From: Patescibacteria group bacterium | GTDB lineage: Bacteria > Patescibacteriota > Patescibacteriia > JACRDY01 | DNA: 64,000 bases | Reading direction: 5' to 3' | Assembly (NCBI GenBank): GCA_041650515.1 | Contig: JBAZLA010000002.1 | Span: forward strand, 103,659 to 167,658 | Shown here: positions 10,995 through 15,857 of the stretch, one piece after another | Layout: every line of letters begins with the position of its first letter | Position numbering within the stretch: position 1 is the stretch's first letter | Position numbers and translations under genes: made by a program | The notes under the pieces: model-generated | Databases searched by the model: none | The model's input: only the letters and a program-made list of their open reading frames with translations | What the model was told of the DNA's origin: nothing

Positions 10995-11588
10995 ATGACT
11001 AACAAAATTCTCCAAACTTCTTTTTATAACCGACCAACACGTCAAGTTGCCCAGGATCTCCTGGGTAAAATTATTATCCGTCAAATCGGCCGCAAAAAAT
11101 ATTACGGCCTTATTACCGAAACTGAAGCTTATTGCGGGCCTCAGGACCAGGCCTCCCACGCTAGCAAAGGCCGCACCCCACGCACCGAGGTAATGTTTGG
11201 CCCAGCCGGCCACACCTATATCTATCTGATTTACGGTCTGTATCATTGTTTCAATATTGTCACCGAAAAAAAAGACTACCCAGCCGCGGTCCTGATCCGT
11301 GGCGCCCTCCCCTTACCAAAGGAATGGTTGGGTGGGGTTACTCTGCCCCTTTCCAAGAGGGAGATGGCCGAAGGCCAGAGGGGGTTAGCTAGTGGCCCAG
11401 GCAAACTCTGCCGTTATTTTAAAATTGATAAAACACTAAATAACCTCGATATTACTAAACCCAATAAACTTTGGCTGGTCGACAGCGGGCTAAAACCCCA
11501 AAGAATCATTCGCCGGCCTCGGGTCGGCGTTGATTACGCTGGTAAATACAAAGACAAAAAATGGCGGTTTATTACCCGATTTTCTTGA
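10995..11588 (+). CDS. mpg: DNA-3-methyladenine glycosylase (Mpg/AAG family)
   Basis: ATG overlaps TAA of upstream gene (taaATG); motifs GLITETEAYCGP, MFGPAGHTYIYLIYG, AVLIRGA, GPGKLC typical of Mpg family. Confidence 0.85.
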   Translation: MTNKILQTSFYNRPTRQVAQDLLGKIIIRQIGRKKYYGLITETEAYCGPQDQASHASKGRTPRTEVMFGPAGHTYIYLIYGLYHCFNIVTEKKDYPAAVLIRGALPLPKEWLGGVTLPLSKREMAEGQRGLASGPGKLCRYFKIDKTLNNLDITKPNKLWLVDSGLKPQRIIRRPRVGVDYAGKYKDKKWRFITRFS

Positions 11589-12168
11589 TACTATTTCTAT
11601 CTTCATCCCAATTTAAAGGATTATTGATAATATATTCGCTGATTTTTTGGTATTCTATTTGATTACGAATAATGTGTTCGTAATAATTTCGTTGCCATAA
11701 TCGTTGATCAAACGGCGACCAATTATTTTGTTTAACGTTTTTAATATATTCGTTGGTGGACATGGTTTTGAACCATTGCACCACCCGGGGTATTAATTGT
11801 TGGGAACGACGTAGGGGCAGACCCGGCGGTATTGGCAGACCTCTGTGTCTGCCCTGTTGGTTCGGGCAGACACAGAGGTCTGCCCCTACGTCGTCGATAA
11901 TTTCCACAATTCCATGAATATGATTTGGCATAACCACAAACACACCCAATCGAATGGTCAAAAATTTGTTCGGTAGTTTAGACCACCATTTTTGTGCCAT
12001 CCGACCCGCCGGATTTAAAATCATTCCCCCGTTTTCCACCCGACCGAATAAATAAACCATATTTTGGCTACAGATGGTAATGAAATATTGCCCCATTCCC
12101 GAATAATCATAATCGGGCAAGCGGATAGAACGACGGTGATGGTAATCGGGGTTATACATAGATAACAA
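11572..12168 (-). mobile_element. REP-associated tyrosine transposase (RAYT / IS200-like Y1 HuH transposase) gene with intragenic REP-like insertion
   Basis: HuH motif MPNHIHGIVEI and catalytic Tyr motif EYIINNP; about 30 extra residues (VGADLCVCPNQQGRHRGLPIPPGLPLRRS) between the two motifs are encoded by a GC-rich compound palindrome. Confidence 0.75.
11806..11894. repeat. GC-rich REP-like compound palindrome (BIME-like) inside the RAYT ORF
   Basis: Outer 18-bp perfect inverted arms acgacgtaggggcagacc / ggtctgcccctacgtcgt; inner units ggcagacctctgtgtctgccc and gggcagacacagaggtctgcccc are reverse complements of each other; GTAG/CTAC tetranucleotides flank the hairpins as in REP sequences. 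Confidence 0.8.
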
Positions 12169-12221
12169 AAGATAAGGCCTATCCTGACTCTATCATGGTG
12201 GACATTAAAGAAATCTAAAAT

Positions 12222-12245
12222 AAAAAAAGGGACGACGATCGTCCC
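12222..12245 (-). terminator. Rho-independent terminator candidate downstream of GC-rich island gene
   Basis: On minus strand GGGACGA-TCG-TCGTCCC (7-bp GC stem) followed by TTTTTTTATTTTAG; additional GC hairpins at 12275-12288 and 12300-12315. Confidence 0.5.
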
Positions 12246-12315
12246 CGACTAAGCTCGGACTAACCCACAAGGGTGGCTGGTCCCAGCCCAGTTAATTGTG
12301 CTGCTTGTAGGCAGC

Positions 12316-12681
12316 TTATTTTTTGGCTTTGGGCTTCTGGCGCGACTTGGGCCGACACCGGCTATTCAGCCAGTCGTCGAACGATCCGACGCTGGCAAAA
12401 TCCGCCTCGTTCGGCTTCTTGCCGTTGACGGCCATCAGATGACGCGCGGCCACCTGCATCACCCCGGTGCCTGACGGATGCCGGAAACGGGCTACCACAC
12501 CCGCTCCCTGCGAGTCGTGACCAAGGCCAATAATCTCCAGACGCTGCCCCAGGGCCGGCGCCAGATGGGCGATAGAGCCAATCGTGGCTCCGCCGCCAGC
12601 GCACGGGCTATTCCGGTTGATCTTGGCCACCACACCAGGATCAACCGATTCGAAAGTCACAGTAATGAATTCTCGACGCAT
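12316..12681 (-). CDS. Small basic protein of unknown function, GC-rich island gene B (paralog of 13047..13448)
   Basis: ORF track gives 12316..12765 but AGGAGG lies 8 nt upstream of ATG at 12681 (MRREFITVTF...); C-terminal basic tail KSRQKPKAKK; region is about 60% GC versus about 40% elsewhere. Confidence 0.55.
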   Translation of the reverse strand: MRREFITVTFESVDPGVVAKINRNSPCAGGGATIGSIAHLAPALGQRLEIIGLGHDSQGAGVVARFRHPSGTGVMQVAARHLMAVNGKKPNEADFASVGSFDDWLNSRCRPKSRQKPKAKK

Positions 12682-13046
12682 AGGGGCCCCTCCTACCAAA
12701 GATTGAGGCAATTGTTTAAAAAGAACCCACACCCCAGCCCGCCTCATTAGGCTAAGGTGATTCACTGATTATTTATTTAATTACCATATTTTCAGTCTTC
12801 AGTCAATAACAATATTCTAAATAAAACAAAATGGGGCAGACGCGTAGTCTTACCCCGGCGCAAGATCGTGGGCAGGCGGGCCTTTGAATCAGCGCAAATT
12901 TCCTCTTTTGGGTTTCCTTCCCCCCTTGTGTGACCGCGCCGCATTGCGGTCGAAGAATTCAACCCCCTTGAGGAAGACGATATCGCTTGGTCAGAAGAGA
13001 ACACAAGGTAGCTCATCTGGCGAAGCGACAAATGCAAAAGGACGTC

Positions 13047-13448
13047 TTACGACCGGCGACGAACTTTGCCGCTGCCGCCGGACTGCTTCTTCTTGCCGCT
13101 GCCGCCGTTGCAGTGGAGCAGAAGAAATTCGCCGAGAAACGTCTCGGCATCCGTCAGATGCTGCTCGGTCGGTTTGATCTTATCGGCGCTCATGACATGC
13201 TGCGCCATGACCTGCAGATCACCCGGATTGAGCCGGCCTTGCAGAGCCTCAGGCAGGGCGAATCGGATGATCGGTCTTCGCAACTTGGGGTGATCAGCGA
13301 TTTCCACCACCGTAAGCTCATGACCGATCAACTGACCGAGTCGTTCGTGGTGACGAGCCTTACTCGGTCGGCCATTCAACACGCATTCACTGTCGCCATT
13401 GAGACAAACAGTGAGCCCCTTCGGAACCTCAACAAACTGAAACTCCAT
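13047..13448 (-). CDS. Small basic protein of unknown function, GC-rich island gene A
   Basis: GAGGT 7 nt upstream of ATG; C-terminal Gly/Lys/Arg tail; segment LQVMAQHVMSADKIKPTEQHLTDAETF aligns with VMQVAARHLMAVNGKKPNEADFASVGSF of gene B; preferred over overlapping plus-strand ORF 12987..13451, which lacks an RBS. Confidence 0.55.
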   Translation of the reverse strand: MEFQFVEVPKGLTVCLNGDSECVLNGRPSKARHHERLGQLIGHELTVVEIADHPKLRRPIIRFALPEALQGRLNPGDLQVMAQHVMSADKIKPTEQHLTDAETFLGEFLLLHCNGGSGKKKQSGGSGKVRRRS

Positions 13449-13569
13449 TAGCGTTACCTCTTCTTTCAGGGCATAGGAGAATGAGCTTTTAGTTGGTCTT
13501 CCGCCTTAGACCTCTGTATAGCCCTAAACGCCAAGGATTCGCCCCGTTGATCCTGACGTAATTATTCGC

Positions 13570-13599
13570 ATTATAAACAAAAAGAATAGTTCTTGTCAA
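13570..13599 (-). promoter_or_regulatory. Perfect consensus sigma70 promoter TTGACA-N18-TATAAT reading into the GC-rich island genes
   Basis: Minus strand: TTGACA (13599..13594), 18-nt spacer, TATAAT (13575..13570), about 115 nt upstream of gene A start. Confidence 0.6.
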
Positions 13600-13613
13600 C
13601 TATCTTCTTAATT

Positions 13614-13715
13614 GTCATTGCGAGGCCCGACGTAAAGTCGGGCCGAAGCAATCTCATGATATATCCACCAGATTGCTTCGTCGCTCCGCCGGCTGGCGGA
13701 GCTCCTCGCAATGAC
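13614..13715. repeat. 102-bp nested compound palindrome (closing stem plus three internal hairpins, all perfect Watson-Crick)
   Basis: Outer gtcattgcgag/ctcgcaatgac (11 bp); hairpin 1 gcccgac-gtaaa-gtcgggc; hairpin 2 cgaagcaatc-17 nt-gattgcttcg; hairpin 3 gctccgcc-ggct-ggcggagc; linkers 0-2 nt. Confidence 0.8.
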
Positions 13716-13757
13716 GTGGTCAATAAATTTGCTTTATTGTTTTCTTGCTTTATTGAC

Positions 13758-15857
13758 CTATTCCCAATGCACTCGCTCGGCCATTTCCCTTACCTTATCT
13801 TTGAGTAAATAATATTTACTTAATTCTGGATCACTGTGGATAACTTTAGCTGCCCACTCACGCGCTTGCTTAATGGCTGCTAAATCAAACAAACTAGCTA
13901 GCCGTAAATTAGGCAAACCACTCTGCATGGTGCCTAGGGTCTCACCTGGCCCGCGAAATTCTAAATCTTTCTCGGCTAGTGCAAAACCATCCTGGCTAGC
14001 CACTAACGCCGCTAGACGCCTAGCGGTTATCTCACTAGCCGATTCGGTAAATAAAAAACAATAGGATTGGTGCTCTGATCGACCCACCCGACCGCGGAAT
14101 TGGTGCAACTGCGCTAAACCAAAACGCTCAGCCCCTTCGATCATCATCACCGTGGCATTAGGCACATCCATGCCCACTTCCACTACGGCCGTGGCGACCA
14201 AAACTTTAATTTTATTAACCAAAAAATCTTGTCGTACTCGCTCTTTCTCCGCCGATTTTAACCGACCATGCAAAATGCCAATCGCATGTTCTGGAAAAAT
14301 TTCTTTGTCTAGTTTAATAAATTCTTCTTCCGCCGACTTAACGCCTAATTTGTCTGACGGATCAATCAATGGACAGATCACAAAAGCCTGTCGACCAGCT
14401 TCAATCTGCTGCCTAATAAATTGATAAGCCGGCCGATACTTATTAGATTCAATAATTTTGGTGATAATTTTTTTACGACCCAGCGGCAATTCATCAATAA
14501 TTGATAAGTCTAAATCGCCATAGATAGTCAAAGCTAACGACCGCGGGATTGGGGTGGCGGTCATTGATAAAAAATGAGGCAATAAACCGCTATTACCCGC
14601 TCGTTCTTTAAGCGCCTGGCGCTGTTTAACACCAAAACGATGTTGTTCGTCAACGATCGCCAGAGCTAAGTTTTTAAATTCAATCTTTTCTTGGATCAAA
14701 GCGTGAGTGCCAATAATAACGTCAATTTTACCGGCTTTAAGCATCTTAATCACCTCTGAGTGCTTTTTATTTTCTGCTTCACCTAGCGAGCCAAAAAACA
14801 ACTTAACGCTACCCCGAGTTAATAAACCAATGTTAATATCCGCTCCGGACAAGAGTTTACTCACAGTTTGAAAATGCTGATTGGCTAGTATCTCGGTTGG
14901 GCAGAGCAAGGCGGCCTGATATTTGTTACTAACAACATTAAGCATCGCTAAAGTAGCCACCACGGTTTTACCCGAGCCAACATCACCTTCGAGCAGCCGA
15001 TTCATTGGCTGATTTTTTTGTAGATCCTTCAGAATCTCCCAAGCCGCTTTACGTTGAGCCGTCGTCAGTTTAAATGGTAAACTAGCGACAAAATTTTTAA
15101 TCACTCCCTCTTTAAATTCTAAGCTACTGGAGTGGCTTTTTTCTAGTTCGCGACGCGCGAGTTGGTTTTGCAGCTGAATAATAAAAAATTCGTCAAACTT
15201 AAGCCGACGCCGCGCCTGCTGCAGCCTGGCTTGGCTATCGGGAAAATGGATCTGCCTGATAGCCGCTATCAGGCCGGGAAATTTTAAAGCTAAAATAATC
15301 TCCGCCGGCAAATAATCCTTAATACTTTTTAATTGGGTCAAAACGATCTTAATCAGATAACGAATTTGTTTAGAAGTTATCCCCTTGGTCAAGGGATAAA
15401 CCGGTACCAGCCGAGCGGTATGCGTCGGCCCACTAGCGGCTTTAACCTTGGTAATCTTTTCATAGCTTGGCGAATGAAATAAAATTCCCTTATCAAAATC
15501 AACCTTACCAGCAATAAAAACCTCATCGTTCGGCTGTAAAATTTTACTCACAAAGGGTTGGCCGAACCAAATAACTTTTACTGAACCAGTAATATCAGTG
15601 ATAATCGCTTCGGTAACTATCCGTCGCGCTCGCCAAGAACGGAAATTTTTAATCAATTCTACTCTGCCACGAACGGTCGCCGTAACCCCCGGCGCCAAAT
15701 CCCGAATATCAACTACCTGACTAAAATCATCATAGCGAAACGGATAATAAAAAATGAGATCGGCTATCGTCTCAATTTCTAATTTTTTTAATTTTGGCGC
15801 TAATCTAGCGGCAATTTTATTAAGATAACTAACCGGCGTTTTTAAATTAATCAACAT
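13758..15857 (-). CDS. recG: ATP-dependent DNA helicase RecG
   Basis: 699 aa; N-terminal wedge/OB region, helicase motif I DVGSGKTVVA, DEQHRFGV (motif II), C-terminal helicase domain motifs; canonical RecG architecture. Confidence 0.9.
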   Translation of the reverse strand: MLINLKTPVSYLNKIAARLAPKLKKLEIETIADLIFYYPFRYDDFSQVVDIRDLAPGVTATVRGRVELIKNFRSWRARRIVTEAIITDITGSVKVIWFGQPFVSKILQPNDEVFIAGKVDFDKGILFHSPSYEKITKVKAASGPTHTARLVPVYPLTKGITSKQIRYLIKIVLTQLKSIKDYLPAEIILALKFPGLIAAIRQIHFPDSQARLQQARRRLKFDEFFIIQLQNQLARRELEKSHSSSLEFKEGVIKNFVASLPFKLTTAQRKAAWEILKDLQKNQPMNRLLEGDVGSGKTVVATLAMLNVVSNKYQAALLCPTEILANQHFQTVSKLLSGADINIGLLTRGSVKLFFGSLGEAENKKHSEVIKMLKAGKIDVIIGTHALIQEKIEFKNLALAIVDEQHRFGVKQRQALKERAGNSGLLPHFLSMTATPIPRSLALTIYGDLDLSIIDELPLGRKKIITKIIESNKYRPAYQFIRQQIEAGRQAFVICPLIDPSDKLGVKSAEEEFIKLDKEIFPEHAIGILHGRLKSAEKERVRQDFLVNKIKVLVATAVVEVGMDVPNATVMMIEGAERFGLAQLHQFRGRVGRSEHQSYCFLFTESASEITARRLAALVASQDGFALAEKDLEFRGPGETLGTMQSGLPNLRLASLFDLAAIKQAREWAAKVIHSDPELSKYYLLKDKVREMAERVHWE

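Follow-up and report, generated by a model that had tools for sequence, protein, structure and literature searches.

A putative subclass 2.4 RAYT gene from a Patescibacteria bacterium carries an inverted pair of GTAG-footed REPs in frame

We consider it very probable that a gene in a 64-kb stretch of Patescibacteria DNA (the window) encodes a RAYT (TnpA-REP) of subclass 2.4, equivalent to RAYT group 4, and that the palindrome in its coding sequence is a head-outward pair of the enzyme's cognate REPs, lying in frame in the loop between β3 and αC. Placement in subclass 2.4 comes from motifs and architecture rather than from a phylogeny with reference sequences. The internal-REP layout is published as a hallmark of this subclass, so the case is another example, from a member of the Patescibacteria, of a known RAYT subfamily trait and not a new phenomenon. 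A striking coding-sequence palindrome resolves into a documented trait. The features are as follows.

11572..12159, minus strand: RAYT / TnpA-REP gene, very probably subclass 2.4 (195 aa from ATG; ORF list, Pfam, 4ER8 match)
11914..11925, minus strand: HUH motif N82-H83-I84-H85 in the 198-aa numbering (read from the sequence)
11864..11889, minus strand: REP A, GTAG foot and GGGCAGAC-CTCTGT-GTCTGCCC, encoding VGADLCVCP (repeat analysis, pattern count)
11855..11863, minus strand: 9-nt spacer between the inverted REPs, GAACCAACA on the coding strand (repeats, fold)
11834..11854, minus strand: REP B, GGGCAGAC-ACAGAG-GTCTGCC, an inverted REP A including the loop, encoding GRHRGLP (repeats)
11811..11833, minus strand: in-frame partial duplication, the 11-nt linker AATACCGCCGG followed by GTCTGCCC-CTAC, encoding IPPGLPL (sequence)
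11806..11810, minus strand: 5-nt outer extension past the foot, ACGAC on the plus strand, pairing with GTCGT at 11890-11894 (inverted repeat)
11665..11697, minus strand: W158-Q159...Y163-E164-H165...R168 block (HMM alignment to 4ER8)
11617..11634, minus strand: catalytic tyrosine motif Y179-I-I-N-N-P184 (read from the sequence)
12833..12856, plus strand: degenerate REP candidate GGGGCAGAC-GCGTA-GTCTTACCCC, about 670 bp upstream of the RAYT gene

On the coding strand the palindrome (11806-11894) reads ACGAC-GTAG-(GGGCAGAC-CTCTGT-GTCTGCCC)-GAACCAACA-(GGGCAGAC-ACAGAG-GTCTGCC)-AATACCGCCGG-(GTCTGCCC)-CTAC-GTCGT and is translated as VGADLCVCP-NQQ-GRHRGLP-IPPG-LPLRR. REP A and REP B are the same unit in opposite orientations, down to the loops, and their GTAG feet face outward (GTAG at 11811-11814, CTAC at 11886-11889). 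Each REP combines the GTAG foot with an 8-bp G+C-rich stem, three G-C pairs at its bottom, and a 6-nt loop. The 26-nt arms at 11829-11854 and 11864-11889 are 92% complementary. Both inner inverted hairpins with GTAG/CTAC feet that had been described from the sequence are present, one of them with a shorter stem. The hairpin at 11864-11885 (GGGCAGAC-ACAGAG-GTCTGCCC) has a stem of 8 bp; that at 11834-11853 (GGCAGAC-CTCTGT-GTCTGCC) has only 7 bp because base 11833 is a T and not a G.

The stretch at 11811..11833 holds a second copy of the REP B 3' arm with its CTAC foot, and the direct repeat GGTCTGCC recurs there at a distance of 18 nt. It is this 18-nt in-frame duplication of the half-arm that gives rise to the outer 18-bp arms (11806-11823 and 11877-11894). 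The sequence-only reading had taken 11806-11894 for an exact compound palindrome, which holds for the 18-nt arms, 100% complementary, but not for 11823-11833, which is part of the half-arm duplication and has no pairing partner. Half-arm repeats of a similar kind occur in two homologous loci (L012 and L017), and the closest genome homolog (L001) has a comparable outer extension, CGTC-GTAG...CTAC-GACG.

Chance is excluded as the source of the palindrome by a pattern count against shuffles and by the fold energy. With up to two mismatches, GGGCAGAC-N6-GTCTGCCC was found twice in the 64-kb window and 0 times in 100 shuffles. As single-stranded DNA, the 109-nt stretch folds with a predicted energy of -39.3 kcal/mol compared to -13.3 ± 2.2 for shuffles (z = -11.8). 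Repeats, feet and fold together bear out the earlier view of the insert as a genuine GTAG-footed REP pair in frame. Its GC content, put at about 70% in that view, is 62.9%; the remainder of the gene has 37.3%.

The minus-strand open reading frame (11572-12168) encodes 198 aa from a TTG start, and the ATG at 12159 gives 195 aa. A 100% identical NCBI protein of 195 aa (P0001, 'MAG: transposase [Patescibacteria group bacterium]'), located on a 243.5-kb contig, begins at this ATG. The Pfam Y1_Tnp model barely passed its cutoff (23.7 bits versus 23), and did so through the C-terminal half of the protein. The NCBIfam model for REP-associated tyrosine transposases (REP_Tyr_transpos) scored 49.5 bits, below its cutoff of 80. 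By sequence the sole match to a solved structure was 4ER8, the E. coli TnpA-REP. The same entry, in which the enzyme is bound to a REP hairpin, was also the best fold match of the AlphaFold model (mean pLDDT 77.5).

The residues expected of such an enzyme are conserved. In an alignment of 21 homologs from several phyla, H83 and H85 of the HUH motif are invariant, as are Y179, N183 and P184, and Y179 aligns with the catalytic Tyr of 4ER8. In E. coli TnpA-REP the GTAG-binding residues are W94, Q95, W99, E100, H101 and R104 (PMC6006769). They align with W158, Q159, Y163, E164, H165 and R168, so that by alignment the residues contacting the GTAG guide, a general feature of RAYTs, are in place; W158, Q159, E164, H165 and R168 are invariant or nearly so among the 21 homologs. 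The assignment as a RAYT-type Y1 HUH enzyme already proposed from the sequence is upheld. Like the TnpA of IS200/IS605 elements, the protein has the Y1 HUH fold that recognizes DNA hairpins. It was rejected as an autonomous IS200/IS605 transposase: the NCBIfam IS200 model NF033573 scored 16.1, short of its cutoff of 55, the window shows no mobile unit bounded by subterminal hairpins at a left and a right end, and the gene is there in a single copy.

The insert lies between the HUH and Tyr motifs, as had been said of it. In the AlphaFold model the HUH strand (residues 83-90) is followed by a low-confidence loop at about 91-124, with pLDDT below 50 at residues 94-112 and 114-118, and by a helix at 125-148. 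This layout suggests that the palindrome encodes a disordered loop between β3 and αC.

Subclass 2.4 of TnpA-REP/TnpA-Y1 was defined by Quentin, Siguier, Chandler and Fichant (2018, BMC Genomics 19:475; PMC6006769), where it is equated with group 4 of Bertels. It is marked by the HuH motif NH[IFV]H, the W motif WQ, the Y motif YIxNNP and proteins with a median of 194 aa (PMC6006769, Table 1). The members share an 8-aa insertion at the αB end and a β3:αC insertion of variable length and sequence; their hallmark is that the gene itself contains, in frame, canonical REPs that have a 5' GT[AG]G foot and three G-C pairs at the bottom of the stem (PMC6006769). The present protein has N82-H83-I84-H85, W158-Q159 and Y179-IINNP-184, a length of 195 or 198 aa and about 35 extra residues relative to 4ER8. 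Its gene holds GTAG-GGGCAGAC-N6-GTCTGCCC and an inverted copy in frame at 11811-11889. Placing a REP pair in the coding sequence had been seen as unusual and peculiar to this gene; it is instead the published hallmark of the subclass.

Two differences from the described members were found. The host here is a Patescibacteria (CPR) MAG, the reported distribution being 'Cyanobacteria, Bacteroidetes and various phyla' (PMC6006769). The large majority of subclass 2.4 members have flanking REPs within about 1 kb (PMC6006769), whereas here that distance holds no canonical REP but only the degenerate, footless copy at 12833-12856. Bertels, Gallie and Rainey (2017) reported RAYT group 4 from 17 bacterial classes with a low abundance of flanking 16-mers, and treat the group solely by these two properties. 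Nunvar et al. 2010 (PMC2817692) make no mention of intragenic REPs. The cited RAYT and TnpA-REP papers report no enzymatic activity for any subclass 2.4 member.

The E. coli TnpA-REP (4ER8), of subclass 2.2 or group 2, resembles the protein in fold, HUH motif, Tyr and GTAG-contact residues, and its REP/BIME substrates are likewise GTAG-footed hairpins. The E. coli gene, however, has no internal REP, and its link from HUH to αC is shorter by about 35 residues. The stems of E. coli REPs are longer and have bulges, and the NCBIfam equivalog cutoff is missed by the protein described here. REPINs consist of two inverted REPs and a spacer and are mobilized by a RAYT (Bertels and Rainey 2011). The pair has that structure, with a short spacer and the capacity to fold into one long hairpin, but it lies within the RAYT's own coding sequence, and a dispersed population of copies was not found in the 64-kb window. 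In-frame GTAG REPs are also known from other genes (Di Nocera et al. 2013). These and the Rickettsia palindromic elements (RPEs) are similarly palindromic repeats in frame in ORFs that likely encode functional proteins. They are scattered in unrelated genes, often at different sites, while here one fixed site is occupied throughout the family, in the gene of the presumed acting enzyme. The comparison with the Rickettsia elements made in the sequence-only reading is a loose analogy only.

A search for homologs of the protein returned 7988 sequences, mostly of 185-215 aa. Of the 120 nearest, 116 have REP-encoded peptides at the insert site. In the 21-homolog alignment the site reads VGADLxVCP...GEHxGSPL, in some homologs in 2-4 copies. 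We also examined 80 genome loci from the Patescibacteria, Bacteroidota, Chloroflexota, Desulfobacterota, Nitrospirota, Planctomycetota, Proteobacteria and others. A coding-strand pattern recurs in them: GTAG-[GGGCxxxC]-CYNNGT-[Gx'x'x'GCCC]-variable spacer-[GGGCyyyC]-ACANNG-[Gy'y'y'GCCC]-CTAC. Under a strict definition of a REP (8-bp stem with at most one mismatch, 6-nt loop, foot present), 45 of the 80 loci, from many phyla, have internal REPs at the insert site, and in 29 REPs lie outside the gene at no more than 500 bp from it. Among homologs the insert differs widely in copy number and in length. In four loci (L008, L012, L017, L058) the spacers contain tandem repeats and repeated half-arms. 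One homolog has the second hairpin only (L056), and five lack the insert (L009, L055, L057, L069, L077).

Base pairing is maintained across these homologs. Foot-anchored hairpins are Watson-Crick paired at 93.5% for hairpin A (n = 29) and 91.5% for hairpin B (n = 28), compared to 29-47% in a control in which the partner was displaced by 1-2 nt. At several positions of the stem both bases have changed in a compensatory way; pair 6 of hairpin B, for example, is G-C in 7 cases, A-T in 12 and C-G in 6. Among homologs, at least three different reading frames are used for REP B (GEHxGSPL, GRTHRSAPT and NTQVHPY). Within the G-x-H-x-G-x-P peptide the two x residues occur as E/S (78), A/A (9), K/L (4), G/P (2), R/L (1) and T/V (1), and 95 of 96 pairs correspond to complementary codon pairs forced by base pairing, with one nonconforming. 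As judged from the sequences, this covariation at the peptide level (E/S, R/L, A/A, G/P, K/L, T/V) cleanly shows that the conserved entity is the nucleic-acid hairpin and not the peptide. The sequence-only reading had counted conservation of the 30 residues among homologs against itself. Formally they are conserved, yet the REP nature of the insert survives because the conservation is at the level of the hairpin, with compensatory stems and a second hairpin in different frames.

Copies of the internal units were also found outside genes. Among the 22 loci having both internal and external REPs, the two share an identical 8-nt stem in 14 (permutation mean 3.5, maximum 9 in 2000 trials). The closest genome homolog among the 80 loci, from a Parcubacteria MAG (L001), has its whole internal doublet with the spacer (about 95 bp) repeated outside the gene, 390 bp upstream, with 2 mismatches, a further likeness to REPINs. 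The identity between these copies (57-148 and 450-541) stops just beyond the GTAG and CTAC feet, which shows the doublet to be copied as a discrete unit.

The 20-nt core of the window's unit, GGCAGACCTCTGTGTCTGCC, is present in at least 120 metagenome contigs. We inspected 80 of these (L081-L160). Nearly all copies have a GTAG or CTAC foot, and of the 84 matches 80 have no RAYT homolog nearby. The identical 26-nt unit including the GTAG foot stands alone in many metagenome contigs. The exact unit GTAG-GGGCAGAC-CTCTGT-GTCTGCCC, with the same stem and loop, was likewise found in at least 120 contigs. The 80 inspected contigs range from 29 to 69% GC, come from hot springs, soil and sediment, and usually have one or two copies each. 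REPs are generally held to be lineage-specific, and the constancy of this unit over very different hosts is unusual for them. In a delta-proteobacterial MAG (L041:2767-3973), REP arrays of GGGTAAGC-CCCTGT-GCTTACCC with a spacing of about 62 bp lie on both sides of the RAYT gene. Their stems also occur inside the gene, making this a subclass 2.4 gene set in a BIME-like cluster.

Pattern searches of the 64-kb window found no canonical extragenic REP. In the candidate at 12833-12856 the stem has two defects, the loop is 5 nt long and there is neither a GTAG nor a CTAC foot. Such a site arose in only 3 of 300 shuffles, so by its sequence it is probably a decayed REP, an assignment that is uncertain. 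A degenerate copy with GTAG had been reported at 12834-12858; the copy is there, but the GTAG is in its loop and does not form a foot. As this footless copy is the only extragenic one in the window, the gene's 'REP-associated' setting in this genome is weak. A RAYT whose sole canonical REPs in 64 kb are inside its own gene offers a convenient natural test of the function of internal REPs.

The internal REPs are most likely passengers or self-renewing substrates of the enzyme. By analogy with E. coli TnpA-REP, the protein would be an active single-strand DNA nuclease/ligase recognizing GTAG-footed hairpins. The internal hairpins may be tolerated since the loop is permissive, and they could persist by being renewed through the enzyme's own REP copying, through gene conversion from extragenic copies or through selection on the nucleic-acid hairpin. 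The 18-nt half-arm duplication and the tandem expansions in relatives would represent slippage or template switching at the hairpins, retained only when in frame. We regard it as unlikely that the pair is instead a cis-acting part, serving as the enzyme's own substrate inside its gene, as a seed copy for extragenic REPs or as feedback on the gene. Were this so, joint inheritance and transfer of REP and RAYT would be guaranteed, and feedback could run via nicking on a single-stranded template or via mRNA structure. Given that 64 kb hold no canonical extragenic copy, the gene-internal pair might then also be the only REP reservoir in a small Patescibacteria genome.

Three other explanations have lower probabilities. 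The hairpins could act mainly as RNA, throttling translation or controlling decay of the transposase mRNA, and be kept by selection for low expression and not as DNA substrates. The compensatory stem changes are equally compatible with RNA, and passages in two papers refer to effects of REPs on translation and on the stability of mRNA and propose that RAYT expression may be lowered by REP hairpins (PMC3733652; PMC6006769). The internal units, however, carry GTAG/CTAC feet and match the extragenic REPs of their genomes, which favors copying at the DNA level, and neither the foot nor the inverted-pair layout is needed for a role in RNA; we hold this explanation to be improbable. That a REP/BIME-like element recently entered this one RAYT gene in a single lineage, the frame being kept open by chance as in the RPEs, is highly improbable. 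The 21 nt of arms A and B are perfectly complementary including the loops, suggesting recent homogenization or a young copy, and the composition is foreign (63% versus 37% GC). The same type of element nevertheless occupies the same site in Bacteroidota, Chloroflexota, Desulfobacterota, Nitrospirota, Patescibacteria and others, few homologs are without it and the feature is published as subclass-wide (PMC6006769). The insert had been expected to be absent from orthologs, and its family-wide occupancy (116 of 120 proteins, 45 of 80 loci) led us to reject a single recent insertion. Least probable of all, to the point of being barely credible, is that the peptide VGADLCVCP...GEHxGSPL is a functional motif, such as a Cys/His metal site, with the DNA palindrome as a by-product. 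In the 21-homolog alignment V94, G95, L98 and V100 are indeed invariant and A96, D97, C101, P102, G106, H108 and G110 nearly so. Yet the region is predicted to be disordered, the second hairpin encodes unrelated peptides when its frame differs, and the co-varying residue pairs exactly match the base-pairing constraint. The insert moreover varies in copy number and length or is absent, and the same nucleotide units occur outside genes. A functional protein motif was rejected on these grounds.

A GC-rich island (12230-13500; 55-68% GC in a window of 43% GC) separates the RAYT gene from recG (13758-15857, minus strand). Searches of 11000-14000 with Rfam (E up to 0.01) and ARAGORN gave no match, so the island represents no known RNA. 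Two ORFs on its minus strand, 12316-12681 (121 aa) and 13047-13448 (133 aa), encode proteins that end in basic C-terminal tails, neither with a Pfam or PHROG match. Among 5.8 billion proteins the 121-aa protein has no relative but itself, and the search gave no link to the RAYT; its ORF has an AGGAGG ribosome-binding site. On the other side, a methylpurine-DNA glycosylase gene (10995-11588, plus strand; Pfam Pur_DNA_glyco, 3.8e-60) converges on the RAYT gene (minus strand), and their 3' ends overlap by 17 nt (11572-11588). Within the glycosylase gene, 11290-11400 is a short GC-rich stretch (55-61% GC) encoding ...LPLPKEWLGGVTLPLSKREMAEGQRGLA...
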